This document shows, in pieces, positions 1-37,316 of a DNA stretch of 64,000 nucleotides. Origin of the DNA: Raillietiella orientalis (taxonomy: Eukaryota); the NCBI GenBank assembly GCA_036172245.1, contig JAYWIR010000133.1, positions 1 through 64,000 of the forward strand. The letters are read 5' to 3'. Position 1 is the stretch's first letter; every line of letters begins with the position of its first letter. Position numbers and translations under genes: made by a program. Below the pieces are notes generated by a model. The model worked only from the letters and a program-made list of their open reading frames with translations, made no database searches and was not told the origin of the DNA.

Positions 1-535
1 AGTCATGTGGACCACCACGGAGCGGTCCATAGATACTGGCAGGATCTTGCGGCCGTCTACGTTCAGCGGCGCATGGATAAGGCGGTGAGCCAAGGTGACA
101 TCTTTGCAGACCACCTCGACCCGCTGGCTGCCGCTGAGGACGGAGAGGCCGTCCAGATCCTTCTCTGTGACATTCGCGTCCTTCAACGCTTTGCTGAAGG
201 CGCGTGCTGTCCGGCCGTCGAACAAGCATCCTACCTGGTTGACAAGCGATGGCTGGTACCCGGAGGCCTTGTATGCGGCCATCTCCGCCATGGCTTCTGC
301 GCTGGGCGCGGCCACCATGGCGCTCCATGTCCTCGGCGTGGCCGGGGATGATTCCGGGGCGGCTGCCCCTGCTCCAGTAGGCTGTGGGGGCGAACTAGCC
401 TCCCCCACTCCCACCTCCATCGCGGTGTCCTCTGGCGTCGTGACCATTGGACACCGACGATGTACACAAAACACCACACAGAAGAAAAAGCGCTTTCCTA
501 CTACTCTTTGTGGAGTGAAGGAAAAACACGTCCTC
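1..535 (-). mobile_element. Non-LTR retrotransposon family M, 5' end and ORF1 N-terminus (copy M1, runs off the window)
   Basis: GGACGTGTT motif at 533-525 and ATG at 447 (MVTTPEDTAMEVG...). Roughly 90% similar by eye to 14123-14660. Confidence 0.85.
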
Positions 536-1976
536 CTACTGGCCGCGGAGGGGGCTGGCTGCAACGATGCAGCCAGCTCCTCCGCCGCACGCTCGAAGGC
601 GGCGTCGTCGATCACGGACTTGATGACGGACGCTTCCGCCGGTTCGCTCCCCACGCTGTTGACATTTTCAACAATGAGTTGCTCGTCGGCAGCAGCGATT
701 TCTACCTTGCGGCGTTCGGCGAAGACGCGTTCCACGACGACGCTCCATTCTTTTAAATTCTCGCTTACCTGCTGTTTCTTATTTTGGTAGGCGAGCTTTT
801 TTTCGATTCGTCGTTCTTTCTTAGTCTTTTTTTTCTTTTTCGCTGTGACTTCTTGCCATTCCAACACCTGACCGCTTTTGTCAATCTTTTCGGCATTCGT
901 TGCCGGGGTGTCGGCTGAGGCCTGGACCACGAGAGTCAGTGGCACAGCTTGAGCGGCAGCCTTCGCCGCCAGTTTTTTCTGAAGCAGCCGCGCGCGTTTT
1001 TTTAGTTCCTCGCGGAAAGCACGCGCACAGCGGATTGTGGACACACTTCCTTCGTGTGGCCCATTGTCTCCCATACAAGGCACTGTACGTTGGGGCACCT
1101 ACTTTTGAGGTGTCCCGACGTGTTGCAGAAGCCACAGTATTTGCGCTTCTCCACGTACCAGAGGTCGACGCTTTCTCCGCCGACCACCAGTTTGTGGGGA
1201 AGGGTAGAGCCCTCTTGAACGGTTACACGTGCAGCCGTGAAACCACACGGAACTGTGGTATAGTTTTCAAAAGGACTAGGCTTGGTCTATACTGCATGGA
1301 CCGTGCCTTCTTTTTTCAACGCAACGCGTAACTGTTCTTTCCGCATCCGCGCGTCAACTCCTGAAAGGTGTACCACCATACTGTGGTCGGCCGTAACGGG
1401 AAGGAGCCTGCGTGTCCCCATTACCTCGGGGGTTTTAAGAAGAATTCGGCCAGATCTGCATGTTCGCAGATCACCTCTACGTACTGCCCCCCGCTACGAA
1501 TGGTCATAGTGCAGAGCTCCTCTTCTTTAACATCGAGAGCGCGCATCCACCTTCGAAAAGGCGCGCGCACTCTCAGCAGAATACAAATTTCCTACCTTGT
1601 AGAATAGTGATGGTTTATACCCCTCTTCCACATAGGTAGATAATTCCGCCCCGGCTGCAGGCGATGGCGCCGACATGACGGCGCTCCACGCCCGCGCTGC
1701 AGCGGGGACCGGTTTTGTGGGGGCGGACGCCCCCACCTCCTTCGCCACTGTAGACGACGTTGCCGCCGGCCCCTGGCACTCCACCTTCTCTAGAGGCGAC
1801 GTTGCCGCCGCCACCTGGCACTCCATTTCTTCAGGAAGCGACGTTGCCACCTGCCCTTGACACGTACTGGTGGTCGCGTCAGGCATTGCTGCCTGATCGA
1901 CCACCACCACACACGAAGCCTACACCTAGGGACGGTTCCCGGCACGAGGAGCACCGAGGAAACACGTCCGCTCTAG
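536..1976 (-). mobile_element. Family P 5' end and frameshifted ORF1 (copy P1), gag-like with paired zinc knuckles
   Basis: ctagagcGGACGTGTT 5' end at 1976-1961, ATG at 1886 (MPDATT), CGFCNTSGHLKSRC knuckle near 1140-1095. Homologous to 5322-6038. Confidence 0.85.
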
Positions 1977-4088
1977 CCGACGTAAAGCTTTCGACTGCGA
2001 CGCCCAGAATCTCTTGCTGGAGCTTTTCGAACGCTTGTGCTTCTCTGCCTCATTATTGGCCTATCTGCGCTCTAGCTGGCGCGATTCGCAAATCAATGTA
2101 ACTTTCAGCGGGCATACTGTTCACGGCGTGCCGGTGCGACGTGGGATCCTTCAAGGAGACAGCCTGAGCCCCTTGCTCTTCAGTAAATACTTTGAGTTGG
2201 TACTGAGAGCGTACAGGGAAACTCTGGCGCACCTGCCGCATGAATGCACCGGAACGCCTGCGGTATCAGCATATACGGACGACTTCCTGCTGCTGCTCCC
2301 TATGTCCACCCTGGCTTCGGCGGTCGAGAAGTTCTTCGACCTGCTGAATCGAGGAACCGGGCTTACGGTGAACAGGGCGAAGTCGTCCGCGATACCAGTT
2401 GGAGCGGCGTGGGCAGGGCAGCAGGACTGGGTCCGTTTGGGGATCCCCAGGGTGAGGTACTTCAAGTACCTTCTTGTGCCGTTGGGGGACTACTCCTCGG
2501 CGGAAGCGTGGTCCTGCTGCCTTCAACAAGTAGAGACGGCGATAGACCCGTTCCGTGGCGGCAGGTTTTTCCTGCCAGAGCGGGCCGCGGCTTGGAACAC
2601 GTTCGCGGCTCCTCTCCTTCGCCTCCTGCTTTTTGTTTGCCCCCCAACAGAAAGGATTAAAAAGCGGACAAAGGACCTCCTCCGTATTGTCCTTTGGGGC
2701 AAAGGGAGGGCCCGAGTCCGCTTAAAGGACTTGTGCGCTCCTCGTCCGGACGGTGGTCCGGGCCTCCTGACGCTGGAGCGGCTGGTGCTTCAGCTCCAGT
2801 TCCGAATGTCGGCACTTGTTCGAGAGTTGTGGTGCACCTGTTGGTGCGTCCCTGCACGTCTCCTTCTCCAGCAAGCCACCGGCAAGATGGGACTGACGTC
2901 GTTTCTTGCACTCCGTCGCCGCGTTAACGGATGCGGACTTCATCTACGGAGGGTGGCTGCGCTGTCACGGAAAAACCCAGGATTGGTCACCTGTCGCCCT
3001 TTGAACGGTAGTGCCTGGTTGCAGGAAACCGTTCGAACGTGGGGACAGATGGGCATGCAACGCTCCCAACAGAAACGAAGGTTCCTGATTGGGGGTTACA
3101 GGAGTTGCACGCTCCGCGAGATCCTGGAGGATCCAAAGAAGAGAGCGTGGGCAGGAAGAATCCCCCTCGCTGCTGCGCTGCCCTCTCTGATGGAAGATCT
3201 GGATAGCGATGTTGCGGCGAAGTGGGAAGTTATAGTAACAATCTCCGGAAAGGAGAAGAAGATAAAAGAGTGGAAGGCGGGCCAGTTAAAAGGTGCTGCG
3301 ACCCCGAGTACGCCTCCCAATGGACTTCTACGCTGGAGCGCGCTGCTCGACTTTCCCATTGAACGTCTGAAGTGGCCCCCGGTACTAAGGAACACCTTCA
3401 CCCTCCCCTTAAAATGGCAGGAGTCGGCATTCCTGTTGCAGCACTGGGGGCTCCCCTGCAACGCCCGCCGACACCACTGGACCTGGGGAGCGGTGGACCC
3501 CAATTGGGTCAGGTGTGGGGAACGGGATTGCCTCCCGCACCTGCTAGTGGATTGTGTTACCCTTCGGCCCCTTTGGTTTCGCTTTGCCGCAACCATCGGA
3601 ATCCCCTGCGGCAACCCCTGGGACGTACTGAAAGCCCTCTTCGTTGCCGACGCCCTTTAGCAAGCGGCCTCGTTAGCAGCCCTGTGCTGCGTTCGCGGGT
3701 TCGTCGCCGCCTAGAGCAAGGCTACGGGAAGACCACACGACCAGGGTGCCATCCAGCCATCCTCCCAGGTCCTGAAGAGGGCGTCTTGATGACCCCACAT
3801 GGATAAAGGAATACAGAAGGAGCTTGTTGGCATCCTGAAAAGGATGCAAGGATCCCACCAGCAACTGTGATCCCTTCCCGTACCCTCCCAGTTTTTTCTT
3901 TTCTTTTGGTTTGCTTTTTTGTTTTTACCCCTTTCCCCTGCTGCCGTAGTGTACCGTATCGGTGTGCGAACCGGTGACCCTGCAGGGTCTGTGTTTCTTC
4001 GTGCGTGGCTGGAGCAATGGTCCAGCCACTGCACGTCTCTGTAAATGTTTATTTTAGAATAAACGCCCCGGCGAAATCCGGGTGAAAA
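1977..4088 (+). mobile_element. L1/Tx1-like element A: RT from the KAFD motif to the C-terminus, 3' UTR and 3' terminus
   Basis: RKAFD at 1981-1995, ILQGDSLSPLLF, YTDD, FKYL, and C-terminal CGERDCLPHLLVDC (ORF 2014-3660). T-rich UTR, then AATAAA (4058), a cccgg/ccggg hairpin and gaaaa. Confidence 0.9.
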
Positions 4089-5321
4089 TCGAATGCTTTG
4101 CGCAAGTCGACAGCTACCGCAGGGGATCCCTCTCCCCCCCGACCATCCCAACTCCCAGCGACGGACGCAAAGCAATTCCGGCTGCTCAATAAGCTCTTTT
4201 GCAACCGCCCCCTTGAAAAAGGGGACGGTTGTGAAGAAAATATCCTGGTGCTTTGCCCAGCCATACAACGGTTCCTGCCGCCAGGCTTCAAAGTTCGTTG
4301 GGCGGCAGGAGATCCATTTCTGGGCTGCCTGAAGCCGGTAAAGCGGTTTCAAAGGGAAACAAAAACTTGTCGTGGGGCGCACCTTAAGCGGACGCAGCGA
4401 CAGAAGTCCGTCGCTATCAGTGCAGCGCCGCAGGAGCAGGCGCGCAGGAGCGCACCACGGAGTGGACCAAAGGTTGGCGCACAGGGCCAACATCCGAAGC
4501 TGCACCTGCAGCTCGTTTCTCATCAGCGTCAGGATGCCTAAGTTAGCATCCCCACGCGGATCCGCCAAGCATTTCAGGCTGATCCTGGACCTCGCAGGAC
4601 CTAACACAGCGTTCCTAAACAGGCTGTGCGCCTGTAGCTTTGCCGAGTAGAAGGGCGAGCATTCAAAAGGCAGGAAGCTCGAGAGGGGGCAACGAAGGTG
4701 TACCATATCGCGGACCGCTCCGACAGGAGGAAGCTGCCATGCTAGAACGGGCTCAGCGCATTCGTAGCCTTCCGAAGGCAGTACGATCACACTTTCACTG
4801 GGCTGATGTTCCCCAGCGGAACGCCCAGATATCCGGTTGACAAAGCGGTCGGGATCCCTAGGCGGATCCAGTCGAACTGCCCCTCCCACGCCGCACAAAT
4901 AGGTACAACCAAGCTCTTGTTCCAGTTTACGCTCATGCCCGCTCCCCGGTAGATCAGCTCGCAGAAATCCTGGAGACTGGACGCCGGGGTGGTCATGGGT
5001 AAAACGAGAAGCAGGTCGTCAGCATAGGCCGCCACGGACGGCGTTCCTGGACAAAGGCTCGGCAGGTTGGCCAGCGTAAGCCTGTACGCCCTCAGCCCAA
5101 ACTCAAAGAAGATGCTGAAGAGCGACGGGATTAAACTGTCGCCTTGCCTGATGCCCCGCCGCACCGGCACGCCGTAGACGTGTCAGCCACTGAAAGAGAT
5201 GGAAATGAGCGTGTGGCGCCAACAAGCGCGCAAATAGGCTACGAGGTGCACCAGGAGACCGACGCGTTACAGAAGCTCCAAGAGGAGATCCTGATTTACG
5301 CAGACAAACGCCTAGTGCGCT
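4089..5321 (-). mobile_element. Decayed RT fragment B (KAFD-equivalent onward) plus a short upstream RT remnant ending in AVAVDLRKAFD (4089-4145)
   Basis: H*AFVCVNQDLLLELL from 5317, IRQGDSLIPSLF, AAYADDLLL, GYLGVPLG. ORF 4049-4291 shows PAVAVDLRKAFD. Confidence 0.85.
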
Positions 5322-6038
5322 CTAGGGCGGACGTGTTTTCTTGGTGGTCCTTGTGCCAGAAAGTCTGCCCAGTGCAAAAGCGTCGTGTGGTTCGGTGGTC
5401 GATCAGGCAGCGATGCCTGACGCGACCACCAGGGATGGCCAGGGGGCAGCGGCAACGCCTCCCCCAGAGGCAATGGAGAGCCAGGGGGCGGAGGTAACTT
5501 CGCCCTCAGAGGCGATGGAGGTGGGGGCATCCGCCCCCACAGAATCGGTCCCCGCTGCAGCGCGGGCGGGCTGCACTCTTCCCCACAAACTGGTGGTCGA
5601 AGGCGAAACCGTCGACCTCTGGTATGTGGGGAAGCCGAAATGCTGTGGCTTCTGCAATACGTCGGGCCACATCAATAAGAGGTGTCCCAATGTTCACTGC
5701 CAAGTATGCGGCACAATTACGCACACGAGGGAGATGTGCTCTAAAGCAGCAGTGCGGGTGCTTTTTAAGAGAAACCTCAAAAAACGCGCCCAGCTTCTAC
5801 AGAAAAGGCTGGCGGCGAAAGCTGCCGCGAAGGCTGTGCCAACCGCTCACAAGGCTCAGGCTGCATTCGATACCCCGGCGAACAACGCCGAAGAAGTCCA
5901 GGGAACTAGCCAGGAGCCTGTGTGACAGGTAACAACAGCCAAAACAACAAAAAAGGAAAGAAGATTAGAGAAAATGCTCGCGTACCGCCGGAAAAAACAA
6001 CAGGCAAACGAGCAAGTAAAAGAATGCAGCGTTGTCGT
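5322..6038 (+). mobile_element. Family P 5' end and ORF1 (copy P2, internally deleted near 5570)
   Basis: ctagggcGGACGTGTT at 5322-5337, ATG at 5413 (MPDATT), CGFCNTSGHINKRC and CQVCGTITHTREMC knuckles. Confidence 0.85.
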
Positions 6039-7345
6039 TTATTACCCGGTTGCGCCGGGACGTTTATTTTTAATATCCATTGGGAACTGTGTTCCCAGGC
6101 AAGGGGAACAGAAAATAGGGAGTAGTTTTCCCGGAACGCAGCCCGGGTACACTGAGAGTTCGGAACGGGAAAGGGTGGGACAATTAATAAATAAATTGGG
6201 TAGGAGGGCGGGGATAGGGGTATACAGTCTAACCGTTCCTGTTCTGAGAACCGGCGGTGAATGACGCCGATCTCCGTCCTTCTGCTCGCAGATGTGGCCA
6301 CCCGGCAGCCATTTGCAGGTTGCAGGCTGCGGTGTCGACGACCGATGTTTGGACTGTTCGCATCTACAATAAGTGGCAAGACCTGACAATGGCGCGGACG
6401 TAGCAAATGATGACGACGACTGCTCCAAGAGAAAGTCCGCCACGCGTGTAGAAGCGGCGCATACAATCGAGTGCGGTGTGTCCGAGGTGCAGGAGAGCTG
6501 AAGACAGCCGCTGCCACAGATCCTAGAGGGCATCGCACTCAAACAGCAAATCCGGGAGTGATTCCAACGCTACGCATTGGGCACAGTTCGGGGAAGCAGC
6601 TCCTTCGAAAATCAGGTGCTCTTGCTGGTTGCAGTACAAACTTCAATGTACCAGCAGAAAAGCGTCCTGTTTCCACCGAAGGGGGAAGGGACTCGCTTCC
6701 AAACACGCAGAAGGGACCACAAGTTCATCGGTGGGCACTTCGAGCAGCGCACTCCACCGGAGAAGTCCCTTGGCACGAAGGCGAGGTGTGGCAGCGTCTG
6801 CCACTTCGCAAGTCGGCCAGCCGCCCAGCAGTCGGGTTTCGCCTGCGATTTCGCAAGTGATCTCCCACCTCGCCTGCAGGTCACTGTCATCTCGCACCAT
6901 CAGTGCATACAGTGCCTCGGCGTTTGGCGTAGCGGCTAGGCGTTTCCACAGGTCCTGGTTTCCCAGCACCTCCCCTACTGGACAGTATGGGGAAAGTTTC
7001 ACGCAACGGAGTTCCATACGGGACACATCCTGTTGCGCTGCCCAGGACGATAAGGCTTCCTGTCTTCAGGCGCTGAAGTTCGTCGTCCGGCAGGAGATCC
7101 ACTCATGGTTTCCCAGAAGCGTGGCGAGCTGCTTCAAAGGGAAGCCGAATCCTATCTAGGCGCGCTCCGTGCGCAGATGCAACGAACGTAGTCCGTCGCC
7201 ACCCGTACAGCGCCGGAGCAGCAGCCGCGCTGGAGCACATCAGGGAGTAGTTCAGAGCTGCACACAAAGTGCCAGCATGCGGAACTGCACCAGCAGTCCG
7301 ATCCGCTCCAACGTCAGGATGCCCAATCCTGCATCCCCCCGAGGA
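6039..7345 (-). mobile_element. 3' part of an L1/Tx1-like element (ORF2 C-terminus, UTR, 3' terminus), probably the 3' end of element Z
   Basis: KGLLRWSALL...FPLRWKQDAFLLVH is homologous to 10950-11080. The minus strand ends AATAAAcgtcccggcgcaaccgggtaataa at 6068-6039. Confidence 0.8.
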
Positions 7346-7349
7346 GCCT

Positions 7350-10300
7350 CCAAGTCGACGCGAAGGAAGACGGCTGGATGCAGGTGAGAAAGTTCATTAG
7401 AAAGAAACCATCAAGGTCTTCGCAGCTCTATGTGAAGGTGAGTGGGCGAAAGAAACCCGCGAAACCTTCCCAGAAAAAGATTGCGATTCTTTCCTCCTGC
7501 GCAGTCGTCCTCTCGCGGTTGGAGCGGGAAGCTGCTGCTGCGGCTAAAAGGACGAAAGTCCCAGCCGCAGTTGCAGAAAGCGCTAGGAAACAGGCAGCGA
7601 ACGATTTCCTTAATTCCGGGAAACAGCAGCAGCGCCTGGCAAGCCCTTGACTGTCGGATTCTGATCCAGAGTCCGACAGAAAGAGCACACAGCGCGACAA
7701 CCGCCCGAAACCGCGCAATCGCCTCCCAAAGACCCGCAAGCGCGTGGTTGCCGGGGAGGAACTGCTGCTGGGCAGCAAAGAGGAGGAAAAGGACCTCACC
7801 TCTGAGCTACCGGCAACAAGCAGCGCGGCTTCGAATGAAGATGTCCAGTCTCCGAGATCGACCGCTCTGTTTCGTGACCACTCGCCGGACAAGGCGAGAA
7901 ATCTGTGCTCACCTTATCAGCCTTAATGCAGGAAGTCGCCTCTTTTCGTCGATTCAGCGTAGCCTGTTGGAACGTCAATGGGCTGCGCAGGGACGGAAAG
8001 AGGCGCGACGTGTCAGACACCCTGCGACATTTCGATTTGGCGATCCTTCAGGAGATGCATTACATCTCCGATGGGGAGGTTGCAGAAATCTAACAGCGCG
8101 CGGGTGGCATTCTGTACTGGCGAGAAGGTTCTGCACAATCGCGCGGAGTCGGTTTTCTCGCCAATAGTAGGATGGCGGGAGCGATGCCAGCGTTTGATTC
8201 GACCAGGAAGGGCGAATGGGCCAACTTGTACTCAGGTGGTCCGATTCAATCGACCTCGTCGTAACGAACGACTACGCGCCGAACGGCTTTCATTGCGTGT
8301 CGAAAGAATCGAGTTCTTCGACGTGCTGGAGAGCCAATGGCTCAGAAACTCCGAAGTCAGAGTGGCGCATCTCGTCGCAGGAGACTTCAACGTCCACCTT
8401 CTTTCCAACGAGACGCGGTCCCTGGCGGAACGGTCGCGGGTGGAAGAGGCATGCGCGTCGGTGCACGCGCCTAACTTGGAAGCCGGCGAGCCTGGACTGG
8501 AAAGGTGCGTGGATCACCTCTACCTCGATGAACACCTACTCTGGCGAGTGGGAAGGAGGGGCAGGGTGCCGTCCACGTTATGGGACCATGAGAGGCTGCA
8601 GTTCGAGCTACTCTTGATGGGCAAGGGACCTTCAAACAATGTTTGGAGGATGCCGGCGGATTGGCTGAGCCACCCGGAAGCGGCGGAGCATCTTCGCCAG
8701 TTCCTTCGCGGCTTTGCCATCCGGGAACTCGCAGACTGGGACCATCTTAAAAGATCGGTTCGCGAGTTTTGCAAACGGTTCCCCCTGCACCTGCTACCAC
8801 GCGGCTTCGGGGAAGGCGTGGCCAATAGCAGAGCATTTCTGCAGGCGCGCACCTTCTCGAGACGTGCGGAAGTCCGGCAACTCGCAGAGTACAAGGCGAG
8901 GGCCGAGCGCCAGGTCTGGCAGTCTGGAGCGGCTATTCTGCTCGACGACCAACGCCAGGAATGCACGGCTCCTGCCGAAGTGCGGCGAGCACTAAAGCGT
9001 CACTTCTCCATGCTCTACACTAATTCTTCGACGGAAAGAGTCCTCTCCGAACTACCTTTGCCGCGGGCTGCACATGGCATCGGCGAGGAGGAACGCGCTC
9101 GTCTCGACGAGCCCTTCACGTTGGAGGAAGTTTCTTGCGCCATCGCAGGACTCAAGAGACGGAAGACGCAAGTTGAGGACATACTGCCCGCGGAGTTCTA
9201 TCAGAGCTTCGCGGCGGAACTCGCCCCACTGGTTCTTAGAATCTCGACGCTGATGAGGGTGACGGGCGATGTCCCTTCTTCCTTCCGCTCAGCGACGGTG
9301 CGTCTTCTACCGAAAGGAGGGGATCTGCGCCAACTCAAGAACTGGCGTCCGATCACATTAGTGAATACGGACGTCAAGTTGTTTTCGAAGCTGTGGGTCA
9401 CGCGCTTAGGGAAAGTGGAGGAGTCCGTGGTAAGCCCGGAACAGTCTTACGCTGTACCGGGTAGATCCATGGATGCAAACCTTCTTTTCGCCCGCACCTG
9501 GTGGCAGCTTCAAGAGCGCGTTGCGGCGGTTACCCGAACAGCGGCAAGTCCTTCTGCCGACTGCATGCGCCAGTGCGGACGGACGGCAGAAAGGCCGGGA
9601 GCCTTGGCACTAGCAGTAGATTTGCACAAAGCATTCGACTGCGTAAACCAGGAACTCCTCTTGGAGCTCCTGGAGCGTCTTGGGCTTCCGAATCATCTTC
9701 TTCTGTACTTGCGCTCCTGCTGGCGCCACGCGATTATCAACTTGTATTTCAGTGGCTCCCGTGTGTACGGAGTGGCCGTGCGCAGAGGCATCAGACAGGG
9801 CGACAGCTTAAGCCCGTTGCTCTTCAGCATCTACTTTGAGTTGGTGCTAAAAGCGTACAGGCTGACGGTGGCCGTCCTGCCCAGCGCCTCTCCGTGCACT
9901 CCGTCCGCGGCAGCATACGCCGACGACCTTCTGCTTCTGTTGCCCATGTCTACTCCGCCGGACTCGGTCCAAGACTTCTTCGAGCTGATCCGTCGTGGAG
10001 CGGGCATGAGTGTTAACAGGGCGAAGTGCTCCGTCGTGCCGGTGGGTGCGTCGTGGGAGGGACGGGCCGACTGGATCCGCCTGGGGATCCCCACGGTCAG
10101 GTACTTCAAGTACCTTGGCGTACCGTTGGGTGATTTCTGCTCGTCTGAATCGTGGTCGGCCTGTCTTCAAAGGGCAGAGATGGCTCTAGGCCCGTTCCTG
10201 GAAGGCAAGTTCGTCTTGCCGGAAAGGGCGTGCATATGGAACACTTTCCCTACCCCCCTCTCCGCTTCTTATTTTTTGTTTGCCCGCCTCCCTATGTGGT

Positions 10301-11740
10301 TAAACTCCGGGCGCAGCGTCTCCTACGTAAAGTCTTGTGGGGCGCTGCGCGATCCAGGGTTCGCCTCAAAGATTTGGTGGCGCCATGCCAGGACGCAGGC
10401 CTGGGCATCCTGACCATCCAGAAGATTGGACTGCAAGTGCAGTTCCGGCTTCTATCCCTATGTGGGAAATTGTGGTATAGTCAATGGTGTGCTCGGGCTC
10501 GCCATATTCTCCAGCGATGTGTCGGCAGTGCAGGATTGCTTTCGTTGCTGCCGCGCAACCTTCGCCGGAGAACTGGATTTGGCTACCCACTGAGGCACTT
10601 GTCCTCGTTGCTGTTAGCCCATTCCTGGATTTCCTGCCGCCCCTCCAATTGGAATGCTTGGCAGCAGGAAGCTCTGGAGCACTGGACGTCCACTTTGGAT
10701 GTGCGCCCAGAGCCGCTGCGACCCTTACAGGGCCCTTTACGCAAACGGCTAGGAATGATGCTACAGGACTGGTCGCTTTGGTCCCGGATAGTCGTCTCAC
10801 CCATCGCCGCAGCGCTGTCTGCTCTCAGGGCAAACAACGACAGTAGCCAACCGGCAAGATGGGAGGTCTTCTGCAGCATTGCAGGAGTGAGAAGACTGCT
10901 AAACGGCTGCAGAACGAGCGTGTTGGTAGACGCTGCCACTCCTCGTTATCTGGCAAAGGGACTTCTTCGTTGGAGTGAGGTTCTTGGATTACTCCCCGAA
11001 GATCTCGTGGTCCCTTCCTTGTGTGTGGACAGCTCCGTGTTCCCGCTCCGATGGAAACAGGATGTTCTTTTTCTGCACTGAGGATTCCAGTGCAATAAGC
11101 GCAGTAACTTGGTTACAGGGGGAGTCGTCTACCCGAGGTTCCTCAGGTGCGAGGCGATAGAATCGCTTACGCACCTGCTCCTTGAGTGTAGTGACTTGCG
11201 GGAGTTATGGCGGAGACTTCCTTCGGCACTTCGTAGTCCTCAGGACACTGCCACAGACCTGCTTCGACGCTTCTTCAGCAAAGACGGACTGGATAAAGGC
11301 GCTGTTATCGCAACAATCTCTTGCATCCGCGCCATCGTGATTGCACGCCGTAAACTAGAAGGAAGCTCGCAGCGAACGGACGCCGCCAAAATAGCTGCGA
11401 ACTTTATGGAAGCAGCTGTCAGGTGGCCTCATCTGCCCAGAAAAGTCTCCAGGGAAGTCGCCATTGTCAAACACCGCTTCTAGAAAGATTAGGAACGTTT
11501 ACTACCAAGGATCCCTGAACCCAACCTCCACTGTTTTTTTTTTTTGTTTCTTTCCTTGTTTTGTTTATTCTGCATCCCTCTTCCTCCGTTCCTATCTTTT
11601 GGAAGGCACTCTGCGTGCCGGTGATCTCTCTGAACTGAGCTTACTGTATGGGCGTTTCTTGTGTCTCGAAAGGATAAATTTGCCTTCAAGATTGTGGTTC
11701 GCTTTAACAAAGAAACGTCCCGGCGCTACCGGTTTCAAAA
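7350..11740 (+). mobile_element. Element W: ORF1 tail, near full-length but disrupted ORF2 (APE endonuclease, RT, C-terminal Zn motif) and 3' end
   Basis: ORF2 ATG at 7926, ACWNVNGL, LQEMH, VAGDFN, DHERL, NWRPITLVNTDVKL, DLHKAFD (9619-9639), IRQGDSLSPLLF, YADD (9916), FKYLG, LRCEAIESLTHLLLEC. Stop at 8091 and several frameshifts. 3' hairpin at 11720-11732. Confidence 0.92.
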
Positions 11741-13910
11741 CTTTCGGAGATGCTATGTATCTCCTGCAGCAGCAACAGATCGAACGCGCGCAAAGCGTTG
11801 GCTACCGTCCGCCTTTTGTCAGCATCACGTGGCCCGTTGACATTCCAACAGGCCACGCTGACACGACGAGCGGACGCGAGTCCACGCATCACTGCTGCGG
11901 ACATGACGGCGTGCTCCTCGCCCCGTCCGGCGAGAAGTCAGCTGGTAGAAGAGCGGATTGGGAAGCGGAATCGCTCCCGTTCGCCGCCACATCGCGCCCA
12001 GCTGAGTCCTGGGAGCCGAGGATCATCGCCTCGGTCTCCGTGCAGGAGCCGGAACCGCCTCCGGCAACAGGCTCGTGCTTTCGCACTTTAGCCCGGCGCG
12101 CTGACGGCTTACCCCGGGAAGCGCGCTCCATTTGTTTGCACTCGGACTCCACCTCGGAGTCCGAGTGCCTGGCGCGAGACTGGCGTTTTGACAGTCCCTT
12201 TTTGTTTCGGCAGGTGGAGGCTTGCCCTGCCCGCGCGGGTGTCGTCGCAGTCGCCAACGCTGCTTCCAGAGCTTTGGCTTTAGTAGCCGCCCTCTCGCGC
12301 GAAGCGACGGAGACAGAGCACGCCGCCGTAGTGCGTACCTGGGTACGAACCTTCTTTGGAGTGCCTCTCTTCTGTCGCCCACCCACCTTTAGGATGGGGA
12401 ATATTGAAGGGTCAACCTTCTTCTTCCCCTTTGTGGGCGTCCCTGAGACGCGAGTCCAACCCGCGTCGGGGACGCAATCCTGGGAGGCCGACGCCTCCCT
12501 CAATTGTTTGGCCGGAGATGCCGGCTCACGTTTCGCGCTCGCGGCGGGAGACGGCTCCGTCCCCGTTACGCACTGCACCTGCTCCTTAGCCGATGCGGGC
12601 GAAACGGCGGTCATTGCCGTCGTCTTGCGAGGCGCTACTGCAGCCTTCGCTGCTCGTACCTTCGGCGTGGAAGACGCGATCTCCACCGCCGTAGGAGGAG
12701 ACTGCCGTTCAGAGGCAGCTCCGAGGGTACCCGCGCACGGTTTCCCGTGTGCTCCGCTGGACGCGCAAGCGGGCGCGGACGGTTCAGCAGCTTTGATTGA
12801 GTGCGTGCCCGCACTCTTTGGTTGCTTCGAAGGAAGCCATTTGCACCCAGGGCGACGTGGCATCTTTCCCGTCTACGCGGTTGTCTGGGATGGTGGCTTT
12901 CCTGAAGCAACCGCGCCCTTTTTCGCGGGACCGCCACTCGAAGATGCCCCGCTCTTCGCGCCCGATTTCTCCCGTGGCACAACGGGGGATCTTTTCGGCG
13001 CGGACGGGGTTGATTGTTGGCGGGTTTTCGCCTGCCGCTTTCTCTTCAGCTCGGCGCACTCTTTGATGGAGTGGCCGAGCTGTTTACAATAGCGGCAGTT
13101 GCGTGAAGAGCACGTCCACGGACGGTGGCCCTCGGCACCGCAAATGCCGCAAGCCGGTCGCTGACCGGCAAATTTAAGGTGAACGATCGCATCGCCCACC
13201 TGCAAGTGCGAAGGCATTTGCCTCCTATCCGCCATGGTGACACGCGCCATTGCAAGTCCGCTGTGGAGAGATGCAATCCTTTTGATCGGATTTTCTGCTC
13301 TCCACAGCGCGTGCACCGTGGCGAATGCACTAAGTGCAGCGACGAGCACGCGATGGGGTGTGTCCACCTGGACGGCGGATAATCGGACCACGAACGACTG
13401 GTCCATGGCCGACGGGACGACCTCCTTCCCGCGGATATTTAGCGGGGTGCGGAGAAGGCGCTGGACTAGGGATGCATCTTTGCAGTGCACCTCCCAGTGT
13501 CCGAGCGCGTTAACCGGCATGACGGCCAGGAGGTCATCCTGTCGGACCCCGACGAGCAAAAGCTCGTCCCACAAATTTTCTCCGACCCCGTCGGAGATCG
13601 CAGCACTCACCGGATAGCAGAGCGCAGGCTTGTAGCCATGGGCTGCATATGCCTGCAGCTCCGCTTCGTCGGGCGGTGCTCCGTTGGCTGCCGCCGCCTT
13701 GACGACGGCGGAGAAGCTTCTCGCTGGTGGCGAGACACAAGAATCAGAGGCGGACCGGACATCTGGAGTAGAGTCTCCACTGCCAGTAGCAGCCTCCACA
13801 TTCATCTTTTGCTGCAGGGCTCCGTGGACATCCCAGTAAACGCACTTGGGCACACCATACACAAGAAGACGGAGAGGAATCACGCTCGAGGAGCAACACA
13901 GAACACGTCC
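11741..13910 (-). mobile_element. Family Z 5' half: 5' UTR, ORF1 (13805-11889, one frameshift near 12870) and start of the ORF2 APE domain
   Basis: GGACGTGTT at 13910-13902, knuckles CGICGAEGHRPWTC and CRYCKQLGHSIKEC, ORF2 MRGLASARRVSVACWNVNG...LLQEIH. Confidence 0.9.
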
Positions 13911-14122
13911 GTGCACCCTTGTCGTCGAGCCTATTCCCGAACGCTGCGAAAAAGAACTCGCCGCTACCGACGACCTCCCCTTTGTTGACTCTGTCAACTG
14001 CAAGGGGAGAAAACCGGCGGCGGCGTCCGTCATCGACACCACCATCGATGACGTAGCCTTCGCGCGACCCGCGGAGGAGCTGGCTGCATCGTTGCAGCCA
14101 GAACACTCCACGGCCAGTTCGA
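13911..14122 (+). mobile_element. Remnant of family P ORF1 (downstream part), lying between the 5' ends of Z and M2
   Basis: CTLVVE...IDDVAFARPAEELAASLQP aligns with WSVVVE...IDDAAFERAAEELAASLQP at 747-540 (minus). Confidence 0.8.
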
Positions 14123-16142
14123 GGACGTGTTTTTCCTTCACTCTCCAAAGATTAGTAGGAAAGCGCTTTCTTGTGTGTGTTGTTTTGTGTAACTCGTCGG
14201 TGTCCAATGGCCACGACGCCAGAGGACACCGCGATGGAGGTGGGAGTGGGGGAGGCTAGTTCGCCCCCACAGCCTACTGGAGCAGGGGCAGCCGCCCCGG
14301 AATCATCCCCGGCCACGCCGAGGACATGGAGCCCCATGGTGGCCGCGCCCAGCGCGGAAGCCAAGGCGGAGATGGCCGCATACAAGGCCTCCGGGTACAA
14401 GCCATCGCTTGTCTACCAGGTAGCCAACTTGTTCGACGGCCGGACAGCGCGCGCCTTCAGCAAAGCGTTGAAGGACGCGAATGTTAATGAGAAGGAGCTG
14501 GACGGCCTCCATGTCCTCAGCGGCGGGCACCGGGTCGAGGTGGTCTGCAAAGATGTCACCTTGGCTCACCGCCTAATCCATGCGCCGCCGAACGTAGACG
14601 GCCGCAAGATCCTGCCAGTATCAATAAACCGCTCCGTGGTGGTCCACATGACTGGCATCACCAGCCGCATGACGCGGTCAGCGGTTGGTGAGGAATTACG
14701 GAAGTACGGTGAGGTGCACGCACTGTGGCTGAAACCCTCCATTTTCGACGGCTTCGATAGCCTTTTTGGTGGGCAGGCTGCAGCGCGGGTCACCGTAAGG
14801 GAGAATTGTGGGCTTCCCCACAAACTACAGGTGGCGCAAGAAAACGTCGACCTTTGGTATGTAGGAAAGCCCTAATATTGCGGGCATTGTGATAACGTGG
14901 GACACCTACGTAAAAGGTGTCCCAACATACAATGCCATTTGTGCGGGGAGCGGGGCCACGTTCGGCGCGTGTGCCCCAAACGCCCCACCCCGGTTCCCCC
15001 TGCCGCGACAAAAGCGCAAGGGAAACGCGCTTCAAAGGTCTCTAGACCTAAAGTAGAAAAGGGCCAGCACAAGCTGCCAACACCTCAACCTCCGGCGCGT
15101 AAGCCGGAGGAAAAACCTTCCGAAACGGTGGAAGGCGAAGAGGGATGGCAGCTTGTAGAGGCCAGAAAGCCAAGGAAACTCCCACCTGCGGAGAGCAAAG
15201 AGCGCAAGACGGCCGGTAAGCCGAAGAAACCCGGTCCGCGCTCGAAAACTCTGCGCGAGTGCACGGTGGCACTAAAACGCATCGTCGTTCCCGAGGTTGC
15301 CACCCGGAGCGACGATCGTTCCCTTGCCGTTTCCGCCGCGCCCGAGGCTCGCGACGGCGAACGCTCTGTTTACTAAGAGGGTGAGCCGCGCGACACGCCG
15401 CTCGAAGCCGCGGACGCCGCGTTCACACAGGCGGCGGAGGAGCTCACGGTCACGCTGGCCGAGCGTGAGAACCCTTCGCGCAAGGCCGTGCAAAGGCCGG
15501 CTGCTGCAAAGAAGGCCCCCACAGGTGAGTTATACCTGGGGGCCGAAAGTACATCCTCTTCCTCGGAGGCACCCACCAGGAAGTCGCGACGCAAGTCCCA
15601 GAAGCCCAGAAGGCGCCTCCCCTCCACCAGCGAGGAGGAGAAGGAAGCCGTCGGAAGCGTGGGAAGTTCGGAGGGGGAATTCCCACGCTCGGAAGCCGTC
15701 GATCCAGCCAACCCCATGGAGGAGGGTGAAAAGGGGGGTGGAGTCCCCCCTGCAAGCGCCGACCCTGAACAGCCCGCCCACATGGAGGAGGGCGAACAGG
15801 TAGGCGCGACAGCACCTGTGGGTGACCCGCTCGACACGCCGTTACCTATGGAGGAGGGGGACCAGGTGCCTTCAGCACCTGACCCTCCTACTCCACCTAG
15901 CGTCTCGCCCCAGCAGGTGGCGGACGCCGCATTGCCATCTTCCCAGGAGTAACACCTGGGCTCGCCAGTCGCCGTCGGATTCGCGCGGCCTGTTGGAATG
16001 TCAACGGGCTGCGCGACGATGGTAACAGGCGAGATACAGCCGACACCCTGCGGGAGTTCGACCTGGCGCTGTTGCAGGAGATCCACGTGATCATTGCGGC
16101 AGACGTTCAGGAGATCGAAACGATCGCTGGGGGTCAGCTGTT
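14123..16142 (+). mobile_element. Family M copy M2: 5' UTR, ORF1 (14207-15952, one stop and one frameshift) and start of the ORF2 APE domain
   Basis: GGACGTGTT at 14123, MATTPEDT, knuckles CGHCDNVGHLRKRC and CHLCGERGHVRRVC, then RIRAACWNVNGL...LLQEIH. Confidence 0.9.
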
Positions 16143-16500
16143 TGTCACCCGGGTGCGCCGGGGCGTTTATTACAAACTATCCGGTAACAGAGTTCCCGGA
16201 CAAAGGGGAAAACAAGATACGAAGAGGGTGGGATCCCCGACACGCAGGTCGGTATGCTGAAAGTCCGGAACGGGAGGGAGGGGACCACAAATACACTACT
16301 ATAAAAAATAAAAATAAAAATATGGAGGGCAGGAGACAGGGGTCGTTGGTGAGTGCGTTCCTTCCTTTCGAAATCGGCGATGGATGCCGGCGATCTCTCT
16401 CCTTACGTCCTGTGGAAGATGGGCCCACTCGGCAGCCGACGACATGCTTGCGCTGGCTAATCCGGTGGGCTGACGAACGATGGCCAGCTTCTCCCCCGAT
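16143..16500 (-). mobile_element. Element V: 3' UTR and terminus fragment
   Basis: Minus strand reads AATAAAcgccccggcgcacccgggtgacaa. The UTR is visibly homologous to 6061-6320. Confidence 0.75.
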
Positions 16501-18169
16501 GAGACGACGTGCCAAGACGATGAAGTTTCGCTCTGCCGTCAAAGAGAATTGAGATCACAAGGCGAGCGATGAAACTGCCTCTCAGTGCTCTGGAATGGAC
16601 TTTGATGTGAGCTAAAAGGCCAAACTGCAATGCTATTGTCAGCAACTATTTGGCAATCTACTATCTTGAGGACGCTGAAAGCAGCCTCAAGTGCTCTCGG
16701 TTGAATCCCACCATTCTTGTGGAGATTTCTTGTGTACGTGGGGGCACGTGAGCATTACAGCTTGGTCTAGTGATGAACACCACTTCAACCCGCTCGTTTG
16801 CAAATTTCCAACAAGTGACCGGAGGTACTGATGAAACATCACTTCAGACCGCATCGCTTTGCGGTTTCTGGAAGTGCATCCAGAGCACACGTGCAACGCT
16901 TTGTGGTGGGTTACTTCGGAAGATACGTGGTGCGCGACAGCATCTGTCAGCTACCAGTGGTATCACGTGCAGCAGCACGTGATACCACTGGGCGTGGAAG
17001 CAGAACCGATTCTTTTCTCGGTGCAACCATCCCGTGCTCAAGTTTATTAAAAACAAGATCGTAAGAAAGGGGGACCCGGGATAGAACGCGACTGTGGTCA
17101 TGAGATACGTGAAATGACACCAAGAACTTCATCTGCTCCCTGCTAGTCACCTTGACCATGCTGGTTATCACCTCATGTATTTGGAAAATCAATGCATAGG
17201 AGTGTCGCGTTAAGCTGTTGCTTGTGCTGAAGAGCAAGCTTGCGGCAAAGAAGACGCGAGACCAGTCAAGACCTTCTAGACATCTTCTCGCCGCACTGTT
17301 CACTTCGAGTTCCTCCCAGGCATTGGGCATGCGGTAAACGCAATCGAGCGCTCGAACTGCACAGCAGCTGCTTTTTTGAGGGTTTCTCCTATAAGGACTT
17401 GATTTTGATCAGTATGAATTGGAAACTGTGGATGGTGAACTTCGGCTGCCTTTGTTTGAGCGAGCGGTACGATAGGAGACTTCCATGCGACCACCTGCTG
17501 TCGTTCGGTGACTCCATAAAGTTGGTCAACAGAGCGTCGCCAGAAAGGATGCATTGGAGAAAATGCATCCATGCAGACAGCAAGTTCCTCTCGGACCTTT
17601 GTGAGAGATGCAGCAAGATGTGGGAGGAATGACAAAGTCCGAAAGCAGACTGTTTCGCCGAAAATTTCTTGACGACTTTATCGGAAATCAATAGAATGTG
17701 CTTGTTTCGTACCACCTTCTCATCGGATACATGCGGGCAAAGTGAAGATACCACCTTCTTTGTGTTTCTCCGGAATGCTTGAAGAGCACTTCGATGGACA
17801 GAAGCGTTCATTTCTGTTGGCACTTACGTTTTCGAATTCCATCGCTAGACGCGGAAATCACCCCCTTTCGGTTGGGCGGTTGCATGCCAAGCGCTCCATG
17901 CTACCCTCATTCAGCAGCGTAAAGAAAGCTTGGCGTGGACGACCTCCATCTGCTTCTCTAATTCAGAGGTCCGCAATCGAATCCAAATCTCCAACACGTT
18001 GCGCGCGTCCTTTTTGCGCATAGATGCGTCTTCCACAATCCAAATCATTTAAACTCGTGCAAGGGAAGAACACCAAGCTGGGAAGCTCCAGTTTGGAAGC
18101 ATCGAGTTCAGTCCATCCGGTCGTAAGGATGGTTCGTTTTCTTCTCGGCGCTCTGCGTGAGAAGATCCT

Positions 18170-21060
18170 TCAGCAAAGCATCTCCGCGCGCTTCTGCGAG
18201 AATTCCAATTACGGAAGCTCTCTGACTGGGACGCAATGAAGAGCTCAGTCCGAGAGTTCCCGACCTCTTCTTCCTGAACCATCGTCCTCCGTGTTTTTGC
18301 GAGGGACTGAGAAGTTTGTGGGCTTACTTACAGATCCATCTCTACTCCGGGAATGCCGACCTCCTTCGACTGGCGGCAGTAATTGCCAGGGCCGAAAGGC
18401 AGACTGAGCATTCCGGGTCGACCAGCTTATCGCACGCCCATGGCTGAGAATTCTCTGCCCCAGCTCTGGTAAATCGCATCTTGCGTGTTTTTTTACTCTT
18501 CACTTTACACGAGAGCAAGACCCGAGTGAGCCTTTGCTCGGCGATTGCTACCAGATGGCGCCTCAGCGTTGAAGGATAAGATTAGGAACCATCTCCAGAA
18601 GCCTTTCTCGATGGCGAAGATCATCTCCGCCATCGGAAAGCTGAAAAAACGAAAAACACCAAGGGAAGACAGGCTGTCCGCGGAGTTTTACCAGTGCATC
18701 GCGGCAATGCTGGTCACCCTGTTCTCAAACTAGGCATGCTGATCCGCGAACGAGGGGACGTTCCCGACTCGTGAATCTAGGCTAGAGTACGTCTCCTCCC
18801 GAAAAGGCGAGACTTACGCAACGTAGGCAACTGGCGGCCCATCACTCTTCCGAATGAGAACGCAAAGTTGCTTGCCAATTTGTGGAATGAGCGACTTGGA
18901 CGGGTGGCGGAATCCGTGGTCAGTCCGAAACACAATTACGCGGTTCGCACGAACTATGGTGCCAGTTGCGATCGCGCGAAGGTCACACAGGTCAAGAGGA
19001 TCCCGAATTTCTGTTTACCAAGGAGGGGAAGGCCAAGGAGGAGGAGCCCTTGCAGTTGCGGCCGATTTGCGTAAAGTATTTCTCTGCGTCGACCAGGAAC
19101 TTATTCTGGAACTCCTGGTACGCATGGGATTTCCGGCCGTCTTTCAGGCCTATGTGAGCTTTTGCTGACGCCACGCGCTCATAAGTATTTGTTTCAGCAG
19201 CCAACACGTGTGCTGCGCGCCGGATCGGCATACTATAAGGCAGGGTTGCAGGCTGAGCCGCCCGCACTCCAGCAACTCCACTGAGTTGGTGCAGAGAGCA
19301 TCCAGGGAGACTCTGGTAACTCTGGCGAGCTCGCGCCCCGAAATGCCTGCCGTTAAGCCCGTTCCGAAGAGCTTAAGCAGCTGCTCCCCGGGTGGACTCC
19401 GGCGTGGGCGCTCCAATGCTCTCTGTAGCTGCCACGGAGGTGGACGGCCCTCGAGGTGAACAGGGAGAAGTCTTCCATCGTAGCAGTCGGTGCGGCGTTG
19501 GCCGGAAAGACGGACTGGATACGCTCGAAGATCTTCACGGGCATGTTTCTGATGTAACTTGGCGCTCCGCTGGGGGAAATCTGCGGAACAGAAGACTCGT
19601 CCGACTGTCTTCGAAAGGTGGAGTTGGCGATTGATCCGTTCTGGATGGCACGTTTCACTTGCAGCAACGGGCCGCGAGGTGAACTACGATTGCAAACTCA
19701 TTCCATTGCCCATCATTTTTTGTTTCTCCACCCCCACTGTAATAAACATGCAAATCGAGAATCTCTTGAGGAAAGCCCTGTGGCGCACAGCGAGGAACGG
19801 TATCCGTTCCTCGCTGTGCGTTTTACCCAGGGACGGGGGATAAGGCCTCCTCACTGTGTATCACATGGAACGACAGAAATACATTTAAAAACTCGCACTT
19901 GCGGTGGAGTTGCGGACTTCGCCACGGTGCGAACCCGCAAGACCACTCGCGAGCGAAAGGCAGCGAAGGATTGCCTTCGATCGCCGGTGCATACGAAAGC
20001 AGCCTGGGCTATTGCGGCCATCAGCTGCACCACACGGCTGCTCTCATGAAAAACAACACGTCAATCTACTGCCCCCACGCGAACTGTACTGTCTGGCTTT
20101 AGGAGCAAGGATGCTCATGGGAAAAAATCGAAGGCTCGAGCGAGGTGGAATCCGCCTGCACCCGACAAGGAACCTCACACTGGATAGCCCCTGCAGTGGA
20201 TGGTAAACAACTCACGCAAATTGCCTTGGCCCTCCTTCATCCCCCAAGTTCCTCCAAAACGCTGCAGACAGAAACGAACGAGCATCGTGAAAAGTGTCCT
20301 GTCTCATTGGAGACAGAAAAAAACGAATGAAGGCGTGGAAAACTCGGCAGGTAATGGGCGCTACGACCACAAGTGTTGCGCCTAAAGAGCTCATCACCAG
20401 GGTCGACCTGCTCGCAACACAACCAGAGGAGGTGGAGTGACCCCGGCATATTGGAACAGCGGGACACTTACAATGCAGTGGCAACAGACGGCGTTTCTAT
20501 TCTTCCTGCATCGCGGAATGCTATGCAGAGCGCTCCTCCCCACAGGACTGTGGGGAGTTTGCTTGCAAGTTGTGCAGAGAGCGGTGAAAGGGAAACCTTC
20601 CCGCATTTCGTATTGCACTGCGTCGCCATCCGTAATCTTTCCTATCGACTCTTGTCGATTCTGAAACTTCCGGCAGGCGACCCTAAAACCAATAGACGGC
20701 ACCTCTGCTGATGTGATCCACTGACCCTGCCGCGTCTCTGGCAGTTTTATGCAGTGTTCGCGCTAAAGTGACACGGTAGAACGCCAAAAGAAGAAAGAAA
20801 AACAGCAGGGATGCCATGCACTGGACAACGATCTTTTTCGATAAGGTATCAAAATGACCCAACCGGAGAAATTCCAACGCAACACTTGTAGGCATCCTGA
20901 AGAGGATGGAGGGGTGCGAACAGGACGAACCGAGGTTCATTCTGATCCAGCTCTATCCCTATAAACAGCGCCTTCTCCCCGATTCCGATTTTCTTAAGTT
21001 AATCTTTGTTTTGTTTAACCCTACATTATGGGTGCTCGAGAGAACCCCACCGGTTTCAGA
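18170..21060 (+). mobile_element. Heavily decayed ORF2 of the same L1/Tx1-like lineage
   Basis: KRKTPREDRLSAEFYQ, GNWRPITL, ALAVAADLRKVFLCVDQELILELL, WQQTAFLFLH, CAESGERETFPHFVLHC, with many frameshifts. Confidence 0.8.
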
Positions 21061-22054: not shown

Positions 22055-23560
22055 CATGCAACATCGTTACTCATAAAATTTCCAGGTGACGGAGAAAACC
22101 AAGCAAACAAAAAGAGGAAAAAAAAAAGGACACGAAAAAAAAAACGTCCATCCTCCAATGGAAGCAACACAGAAGGAGTGCATCCCTCCCTGCTGAGAGG
22201 AATAGGACAGCTTCAAGGTCGACCAGAAAGGCGGTGGCCTTCATTTGGAACGCTCGTGTCTGTCCTGCAACCAACCCTGTAACCACCCCGAAGACCAGTT
22301 TCCGCACACGCCGCTCTCAAGAAGCAATCTATCCCACACAAAACGTTCGGTAGAGAACATCCCTCATGTACTCTCCATGTCCCCGAATCCACGTTCAAGA
22401 AAGCAATGTTTCAAAGGTCGCTATCCTCAAAAAGTTGTACCCTTGCGCTAAGGGCTGCAACGGATATGATTTCCATGCAACTTCGTTACTCATAAAATTT
22501 CCAGGTCGCGGAAAAAGCCAAGCAAGAAGGAAGAGGAGAGAAAAAAAAAGGACACGAAAAAAAAAAACGTCCATCCTCCAATGGAAGCAGCACAGACAGA
22601 GTGCATCCCTCCCTGCTGAGAGGAAAAGGAAGGCATCCCGGTCGACCAGGTAGGCGGTTGCCCTCATTTGGAACGCTCGTGTCTGTCCTGCAACCATCCC
22701 TCTAACCATCCCGACCACCGGTTTCCGCACACGCCGCTCTCAAGGAGCAATCCAACCACCCACGAAACGTTCCGTAAAGAACATCCCTCATGCACTCTCC
22801 ATGTCTCCGTATCCACGTTGAAGAAAGCAATGATTCAACGGTCGCAATCCTCAAAAAGTTGTTCCCTTGCGCTAAGGGCTGCAACGGATATGCTTTCCAT
22901 GCAACTTTGTTACTCATGAAATTTCCAGGTAGCGGAGAAAGCCAAGCAAGAAGGAAGAGGAGACAAAAAAGAAGGGACACAAAAAAAAAAAACGTCCATC
23001 CTCCAATAGAAGTAGCACAGACAGAGTGCATCCCTCCTTGCTGACAGGCAAAATAAGGCTTCCCGGTGGACCAGGTAGGCGGTTGCCCTCATTTGGAACG
23101 CTCGTGTCTGTCCTGCAACCATCCCTGTAAGCACCCCGACCACCGGTTTCCGCAGACGCCGCTCTCAAGGAGCAATCCATCCACCCACGAAACGTTCGGT
23201 AGAGAACATCCCTTATGTGCTCTCCATGTCCCCGAATGCACGTTGAAGAAAGCAATGTTTCAACGGTCGCTATCCTGAAAGAGTTGTATTCTTGCGCTAA
23301 GAGCTGCAACGGGCATGTTTTCCATGCAGCTTCGGTGCTCATAAAATTTCCAGGTAGCGGATTAAGCCAAGCAAGAAGTCAGAGGAGACAAAAAAGAAGG
23401 GACACAAAGAAAAAAAACGTCCATCCTCCAATGGAGGCAGCAGATGCAGAGTGTATCCATCCCTGCTGAGAGCAAAAGGTCAGCTTCCCGTTCTCCGAGG
23501 TAGGCTTCTGCCTTGAGTTGGAATTTACGTGTCAATGCCCGGTCCATCCAGTTAATCCAT
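22055..23560. repeat. Tandem array, ~423 bp unit, ~3.5 copies
   Basis: catgcaac..gttactcataaaatttccagg recurs at 22055, 22474, 22898 and 23323 (periods 419, 424, 425). Confidence 0.92.
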
Positions 23561-36990: not shown

Positions 36991-37005
36991 AAGGTACTAG
37001 TAGAG

Positions 37006-37285: not shown

Positions 37286-37316
37286 GTAGTTAGGATAATG
37301 ATGCTTTTGAATTGAT

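Follow-up and report, generated by a model that had tools for sequence, protein, structure and literature searches.

Here, we report that the left-hand end of a 64-kb stretch of the Raillietiella orientalis genome (contig JAYWIR010000133.1 of assembly GCA_036172245.1, positions 1 to 64,000 of the forward strand, hereafter the window) holds a cluster of long interspersed nuclear elements (LINEs) that are nested in one another, with an organization at the sequence level which suggests that the elements aim at their own kin. Two places in the coding sequence of these elements were used more than once and in a constant orientation: a 12-nt stretch encoding the KAFD motif of the reverse transcriptase (RT), which received three antisense insertions, and a place in the tail of open reading frame 1 (ORF1) of one element type, which received two sense insertions. 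We consider it probable that the cluster grew as L1-superfamily LINEs inserted time and again into older kin by target-primed reverse transcription, with these two places serving as addresses.

Positions 1 to ~16440 (~16450) are tiled by 12 pieces of L1-superfamily retrotransposons without long terminal repeats (LTRs), representing at least four families of ORF2. The map combines self-BLASTN and TBLASTX with TBLASTN searches that used LINE proteins from databases, and its junctions were read directly; it bears out the proposal of an earlier note on this DNA that the 16.5 kb are made of this lineage only. The sole unassigned stretch amounts to ~20-30 nt at 4191-4242, where the boundary between two of the pieces (B and X) is ambiguous. 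G+C content lies between 0.554 and 0.621 in the eight 2-kb bins of 1-16000, against 0.36-0.55 in the later bins of the window. The pieces, with insertion addresses labelled T1 (KAFD) to T5 and identities referred to a database relative, P0003, are as follows.

1..535, minus strand: M1, an M-type 5' untranslated region (UTR) and ORF1 start that continues past the left window edge; the 5' end lies somewhere in 535-590, with the 5' motif at 520-535, and the translation (MEVGVG...) is homologous to M2 ORF1 (94% nucleotide identity between M1 and M2 over 487 nt).
536..1983, minus strand: P1, with an intact 5' end (motif 1961-1969), 42-nt repeats and ORF1, interrupted at T4 by M1; ORF1 comprises an RRM-like part with frame breaks, a CCHC knuckle and a basic tail, with weak zinc-knuckle Pfam matches.
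1984..4088, plus strand: A, which starts in ORF2 at the KAFD codons (1984-1995) and ends with a 3' hairpin and A-run (4066-4088); its frame 1930-3660 is open for 576 codons and is 65% identical to P0003 residues 230-615.
4088..4219, minus strand: X, a short RT fragment corresponding to about residues 191-234 of P0003, which ends exactly with AAAGCATTCGAT (4099-4088) and is followed by the A 3' end.
4191..5313, minus strand: B, a decayed RT that starts at the KAFD position (5313, ±4 nt) and reaches about residue 588-600, host of P2 and 86% identical to a further copy at 63537-63967.
5314..6037, plus strand: first part of P2, with an intact 5' end (motif 5329-5337) and ORF1, interrupted at T2 (…GCGTTGTCG).
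6038..7360, minus strand: W, the 3' part of the element VW, with the C-terminal region of the RT from about P0003 residue 472, the ORF2 end and the 3' hairpin, joining P2 at T2.
7360..11740, plus strand: Z, 5'-truncated in the ORF1 tail, with a whole ORF2 (putative endonuclease, RT and C-terminal domain) that includes an open frame of 816 codons (7963-10413); its 3' hairpin ends at 11740.
11741..13918, minus strand: V, the 5' part of VW, with an intact 5' end (motif 13902-13910), ORF1 and the endonuclease start to ...LLLQEIHSISE, where the Z 3' end is joined (T3).
13919..14120, plus strand: second part of P2, the ORF1 tail after T2, interrupted at T4 by M2.
14121..16144, plus strand: M2, with its 5' end (motif 14121-14136), an ORF1 of ~570 codons with 2 stops, and the endonuclease start to ...AGGQLF, where the Y 3' end is joined (T5, 16140-16144).
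16141..16440, minus strand: Y, a 5'-truncated 3' end (UTR and hairpin) from one more element, which forms the right-hand edge of the cluster; 16140-16437 are 66% identical to the W 3' region and 16142-16192 are 77% identical to the A 3' end.

The nesting can be read because nine element termini are intact: five 5' ends (P1, P2, V, M1 and M2) and four 3' ends (A, W, Z and Y). All five 5' ends are marked by GGACGTGTT, a sequence with no other occurrence in the 64-kb window, where 0.41 occurrences are expected (0 of 100 shuffles reach five), and the four 3' ends carry the hairpin AAACGyCCCGGCG..CCGG(G)T..AAA. Two copies dispersed in the rest of the window have the same hairpin, which was found in all six aligned copies and is invariant among them, and so shows no covariation. 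Each of the nine termini adjoins another member's coding sequence (ORF1, endonuclease or RT), just as the earlier note had stated, and none within the cluster falls in a UTR or in non-LINE DNA. The order of insertion is P2 into B, VW into P2 and Z into VW on one branch, M2 into P2 and Y into M2 on a second, and A into X, P1 into A and M1 into P1 on a third, giving a depth of four to five levels; this agrees with the order drawn before if the pieces then called Z, W and V are our VW, Z and Y. There is weak indication of an additional insertion of X, a 5'-truncated and sense-oriented piece, into B. Six insertions are antisense to their hosts (A in X, P1 in A, P2 in B, VW in P2, Z in VW and Y in M2), while M1 and M2 are sense, again as described earlier, and the weaker ninth event, X in B, is sense as well. 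The arrangement in which an RT, broken at KAFD, hosts a P element that in turn hosts an M element is present twice, at 1-1995 and 5303-14136, and the two sets are confirmed to differ in sequence, with ~62-67% identity between the RT parts, 72% between the P parts and 94-95% between the M parts.

The most heavily used address, T1, is the 12-nt AAAGCWTTCGAY that encodes KAFD. At the first of its three junctions, X ends in ...AAAGCATTCGAT and the A-run of the A 3' end follows; at the second, A starts with AAAGCTTTCGAC immediately after the P1 5' end; and at the third, B starts at the same, now decayed, codons immediately after the P2 5' end, with a boundary that is uncertain by ~4 nt. In all three, the 3' end of the insert points toward the upstream half of the host and the 5' end toward its downstream half. 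The KAFD codons are retained on both kinds of half-junction, which implies a target-site duplication of ~12 nt, pieced together from the three half-junctions. Besides the exact copies of the 12-mer in A, X and Z, the only three in the window, there is a fourth match with one mismatch at 45616. All three A- and P-type termini observed in this one-locus sample lie at the KAFD 12-mer, and A plays both roles there, as host of P1 and as insert in X. Twin priming or microhomology at the near-palindromic KAFD site was considered as a cause of these junctions and excluded, since the partners come from different families and have intact 5' ends.

The second recurrent address, T4, lies in the tail of the P-type ORF1, where M1 in P1 and M2 in P2 begin at the same place, both in the sense orientation (two of two M-type 5' ends in the same one-locus sample). 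Identity between the two copies rises in steps across it, from 72% (106/148) in the P tail through 84% (46/55) before the M motif to 95% (146/154) from the motif on, and the intermediate block means that the boundary is resolved only to ~55 nt. At T2, also in an ORF1 tail, VW splits P2 and is flanked by a 6-nt target-site duplication, TTGTCG, at 6032-6037 and 13919-13924; the T2 site of P1 (733-741) is intact, and one contig of another sequencing run (X1) covers 642-1094. The two endonuclease addresses are T3, where the Z 3' end joins V after ...LQEIHSISE, and T5, where the Y 3' end joins M2 after ...AGGQLF, ~40 nt beyond the T3 position. As an observation in its own right, both P copies carry 42-nt tandem repeats (2-3 units; 1737-1862 and 5438-5520) in their 5' region, upstream of the conserved part of ORF1, which encode a repeated 14-residue unit.

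The earlier note had asked whether insertion positions cluster beyond a random model, and at this one locus they do. When nine insertions were placed at random on a 5.9-kb element in 200000 trials, three of the nine fell within 6 nt in 65 trials (~3e-4), and a triple together with a further pair was reached in 0 of 200000.

We propose that older related LINE copies have received new LINEs repeatedly via target-primed reverse transcription. One or more A/P lineages would integrate antisense at the near-palindromic 12-mer in motif A of their relatives' RT: the sense strand of the host would be nicked after ...TTCGA(Y) and would prime on the A-run behind the 3' hairpin of the insert, and a second nick ~12 nt upstream would leave KAFD codons on both sides. 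The younger M family would enter the P-type ORF1 tail at a single place, in the sense orientation. Fresh sites would be supplied by each full-length insert, such that the cluster could grow inward, with X, A and P1 as a chain at a single address; the self-extending array suggested by the earlier note has its example in A, which is both an insert at and a host of the KAFD address. The choice of site would fall to the elements' endonuclease, rather than to chromatin or homology, and insertion into kin may represent a 'safe haven' strategy in which the target is held constant by selection on the catalytic motif.

Several observations weigh against this scenario, and some of them favor a non-specific pile-up, in which LINEs inserted near-randomly in a repeat graveyard (heterochromatin, or a locus resembling a PIWI-interacting RNA cluster) and the coincidences arose by chance or from mild hot spots of nicking. 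Of the six addresses, four were used only once (an ORF1 tail, two endonuclease places and the C-terminus of the RT), the two endonuclease insertions lie ~40 nt apart instead of at one position, the nick sites have no obvious short consensus in common, and the antisense excess of 6/9 is not significant alone. Relatives of the cluster elsewhere in the window, at 37358, 47838 and 57189 (~37.4, 47.8, 55-57 and also 63.5 kb), have unrelated, non-LINE flanks, meaning that the lineage as a whole does not share kin-targeting. In Z, the KAFD site (9628-9639) is intact and unoccupied, and the diverged KAFD copy (KVFL) of a more distant LINE to the right of the cluster, E19, is likewise uninterrupted. 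No single KAFD event shows both flanks, so that the length of its duplication is an inferred one, and VW demands the loss of ~2.3 kb of host at the Z 5' junction, unless V and W are two elements. The evidence comes from one locus: the one DNA sequencing run examined (X1) contained only 0.08 of the window words, and among its contigs no empty or filled site was readable, bar the contig spanning 642-1094; the 549 contigs of that run that aligned at ≥80% likeness (349 of them at <90%) gave joints that were mostly mosaic alignments of related copies. A metagenome scan with RT alignment returned only distant loci (n=27, 22-42% identity, plus one 28-residue match at 61%), with patterns that span KAFD and are biased to uninterrupted sites, and it was set aside as evidence. 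What a near-random process accounts for poorly is the triple at the same nucleotides and in the same orientation, given its frequency in the simulation, and the further exact pair is rarer still; nor would it be expected to place all nine termini in kin coding sequence while sparing UTRs and non-LINE DNA within the cluster. On balance, we regard a pile-up of this kind as unlikely. The same observations limit the network of different fixed addresses that the earlier note had envisaged: it is supported at two recurrent, orientation-fixed sites (KAFD with three antisense insertions and the P-type ORF1 tail with two sense insertions), whereas the remaining addresses, together with the spacing of the endonuclease sites and the dispersed copies, do not extend it.

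The recurrent events at the two sites are independent of one another, as judged from how the copies involved have diverged. The ratio of nonsynonymous to synonymous substitution rates (dN/dS) is 0.29-0.31 for A and B, a rough ratio because dS is near saturation (proportion of synonymous differences, pS, 0.6) but with a clear gap between pN (0.30) and pS (0.62), and 0.32 for P1 and P2, which argues that hosts and P inserts diverged mostly under purifying selection as separate active lineages. M1 and M2, as a neutral and young control, gave 0.70 at a dS of 0.086, indicating that the M copies are recent and drifting nearly neutrally. If, instead, one RT-P-M composite had been segmentally duplicated, or if P and M (possibly with an antisense RT piece) formed one chimeric family that moves as a unit, a passive duplicate or an antisense passenger would be expected to evolve neutrally, and the dN/dS contrast therefore argues against a single duplicated composite. 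The RT and P parts are also far less alike (62-72% identity) than the M parts (94-95%), M2 ORF1 contains just 2 stops against the decay or deletion in the P copies, and the third KAFD event, A in X, involves a different insert end. Such a common origin does draw some support from the three-part arrangement occurring twice, inverted, within 14 kb, from A-B and P1-P2 divergences that are alike in size, from a reading frame that, in the first set, runs uninterrupted out of the P1 ORF1 tail across the M1 5' UTR into M1 ORF1, and from the 55-nt block upstream of the M 5' motif, whose 84% identity lies between the P and M values; we nevertheless consider it quite improbable. Less probable still, in our view, is an assembly artefact with chimeric repeat joins: the region is hard to assemble, being composed solely of related repeats, and no reads of the source assembly could be placed on it, but every join coincides exactly with a 5' motif or a 3' hairpin plus A-run, and a 6-nt duplication accompanies one of them, whereas mis-joins would be expected inside shared homology.

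Decay of the pieces is broadly in step with serial insertion into older kin, with hosts generally more decayed than inserts: B carries 7 stop codons in the 251 codons aligned to Z, against 2 stops (in ~240 codons) in its insert P2. The pair A and P1 speaks the other way, as host A, with 576 open codons, looks less decayed than its insert P1, in whose RRM-like part at least three frame changes and an in-frame stop were read by eye. A host better preserved than its insert means that P1 would have been defective on arrival, and since the RRM-like part of ORF1 is deleted in frame in P2, it is plausible that the P lineage had lost a functional ORF1 before insertion.

A more far-reaching version of serial insertion into kin would have the cluster produced by a guild of diverged LINE families, each specific for a different conserved codon block (RT motif A, ORF1 tail, endonuclease) in fixed orientation, linked by hierarchical mutual parasitism and forming self-extending clusters, with targets kept by selection on the very catalytic motifs that are disrupted; we offer this tentatively and think it rather doubtful. 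The P lineage, with its ORF1 degenerate or deleted, may be a non-autonomous hyperparasite of such a guild. Target-specific LINEs hide in ribosomal DNA, small RNA genes, microsatellites, telomeres and other transposons, and LINE-only islands are candidates for centromeres or heterochromatin in some organisms. If a guild of this kind were real, an address in the catalytic codons of kin would be replenished by the guild and hard to lose by mutation, and it would provide a simple sequence-level rule for the growth of LINE-only islands. A natural 12-nt address of fixed orientation would also be a compact system for how LINE endonucleases of the apurinic/apyrimidinic (AP) type gain specificity. If the recurrence fails genome-wide, the cluster would be just an unusually legible pile of nested repeats.

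By their sequence, the elements are L1-superfamily LINEs. Among 14 long ORFs scanned, RVT_1 exceeded the Pfam curated cut-off in two, 7963-10413 in Z (E=4.5e-23) and 1930-3660 in A (E=1.2e-07), and the closest solved relative of the 816-residue frame of Z is human LINE-1 ORF2p (E=1.4e-31; R2 at 2.8e-15). Of 8000 scored candidates, 13 database entries were related to that frame at E≤1e-3, P0003 with 61% identity and all others with ≤34%; named database matches were only 'hypothetical protein' entries at 28-34% identity, and several of the relatives carry PF03372 (Exo_endo_phos), PF00078 (RVT_1) and PF13966 (zf-RVT). A search of the ESM Atlas returned generic RVT_1 clusters only. Frame breaks interrupt the putative endonuclease domain, which appears as two Exo_endo_phos matches below the cut-off of 24.5 bits, in M2 (E=0.0013, profile positions 3-41) and in Z (E=0.011, profile positions 119-205), covering complementary parts of the profile in the expected order; a TBLASTN comparison with residues 8-90 of a PF03372-bearing protein gave E=4e-08. 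CCHC knuckles of the form CX2CX4HX4C were read by eye in the ORF1 of P1, P2, M2 and V, for which the Pfam zf-CCHC match (E=0.0019) stays under the cut-off. Further hallmarks of LINEs are the lack of LTRs, the four 3' ends with hairpin and A-run, the 6-nt duplication around VW, and the 5' truncation of Z, X and Y.

We read the cluster as a variant of known target-specific or self-nesting LINEs, compared with the Tx1 clade by its features and with the catalytic-motif codon address in kin as its putatively new trait. Many LINEs of the Tx1 clade have a defined insertion site in another transposon (piggyBac, Mariner, Harbinger and LTR elements are among the targets), with examples such as Tx1 in Tx1D, Tx1-Mar in Mariner-N4_AMi, Tx1-8_Crp and Tx1-4_AMi in LTR retrotransposons and Tx1-9_AMi in Harbinger; sequential insertions at a duplicated target have been described for this clade, and target specificity was there defined by one kind of flank in >20% of copies (Kojima 2015, PMC4494074). 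Like the elements of this cluster, these are L1-like LINEs of animals; they use an AP-type endonuclease, which is putative in the cluster, and enter other transposons at a constant position and in one orientation, as seen here at two sites of a single locus. In contrast to the Tx1 targets given in the text of that paper, the targets here are the coding sequences of related LINEs, namely RT motif A codons and the ORF1 tail, in what would be a self-nesting guild.

The closest parallel for the nesting itself is found in Zepp and Zepp-like L1 clusters of green algae, where L1-type elements are inserted into existing copies and are GC-rich (61% in Zepp vs 53% in the genome), and where the arrays are described as consisting mostly of 3' ends through frequent 5' truncation (PMC8226300, PMC3446292). 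New copies in existing kin copies and raised G+C content (here 55-62% vs 36-55% in the rest of the window) are common to both, whereas the cluster described here has five intact 5' ends, mostly antisense inserts, several diverged families and an address in catalytic-motif codons. Cnl1 of Cryptococcus is also reported to insert into its own copies, but it is placed nearest to R2 and MoTeR, has a single ORF and is described as forming subtelomeric arrays beside telomere repeats (PMC12810828); the elements studied here have two ORFs and L1 ORF2p as nearest solved relative. Three-unit TTAGGG repeats had 0 matches at ≤2 mismatches in the 64-kb window. In openly available full texts, which include neither subscription papers nor Repbase Reports, and beyond the figures and supplementary target lists of PMC4494074, which might include LINE targets, we found no report of LINEs that address the RT-motif codons of another LINE.

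Beyond the cluster, the window holds scattered LINE copies and repeats. E19 (18166 to ~21090, plus strand) is a LINE copy that is 5'-truncated and more divergent (37-46% identity to P0003), with a 3' end like that of Z and a start that is 85% identical to 60255-60386. It was considered as the missing ORF2 of M2 or P2, and there is no overlap between them; its 3' flank is unlike all of the insertion sites. An inverted pair at 37432-38787 (minus strand) and 55719-57092 (plus strand), 92% identical, represents 5'-truncated copies of another LINE family that have the same 3' hairpin and differing, non-LINE downstream flanks, and short fragments of ORF2 ends lie near 32.0, 42.7-43.3, 47.6-47.8 and 59.5-59.9 kb. 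Apart from two weak matches, one of 22 and one of 44 residues, no LINE remnants were found next to the dispersed copies or in 16450-18170.

To the right of the cluster are two tandem arrays, one at 22055-23505 with 3.4 copies of a 425-nt unit (88% matches) and one at 24528-27278 with ~4 copies of a ~640-nt unit, 89-92% identical between copies, the latter from self-BLAST only, as its unit is beyond the period limit of the repeat finder. A direct repeat of 2.8 kb (28822-31644 and 50325-53142, 96% identical) contains ORFs without a Pfam match, and to its left lie pieces that are 80-83% identical (28262-28819 and 49695-50246). The stretch 34000-42000 is AT-rich (G+C content 0.36-0.45), with a very strong plus-strand excess of G over C (skew +0.32 to +0.54) and no tandem repeat called. 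Finally, the open frame at 46340-47305 (plus strand) retains a decayed similarity to cytochrome b that points to an animal as likely host, below the Pfam cut-off and with chicken cytochrome b as best PDB match (E=5.6e-11), followed by human, and is probably a nuclear copy of mitochondrial DNA.

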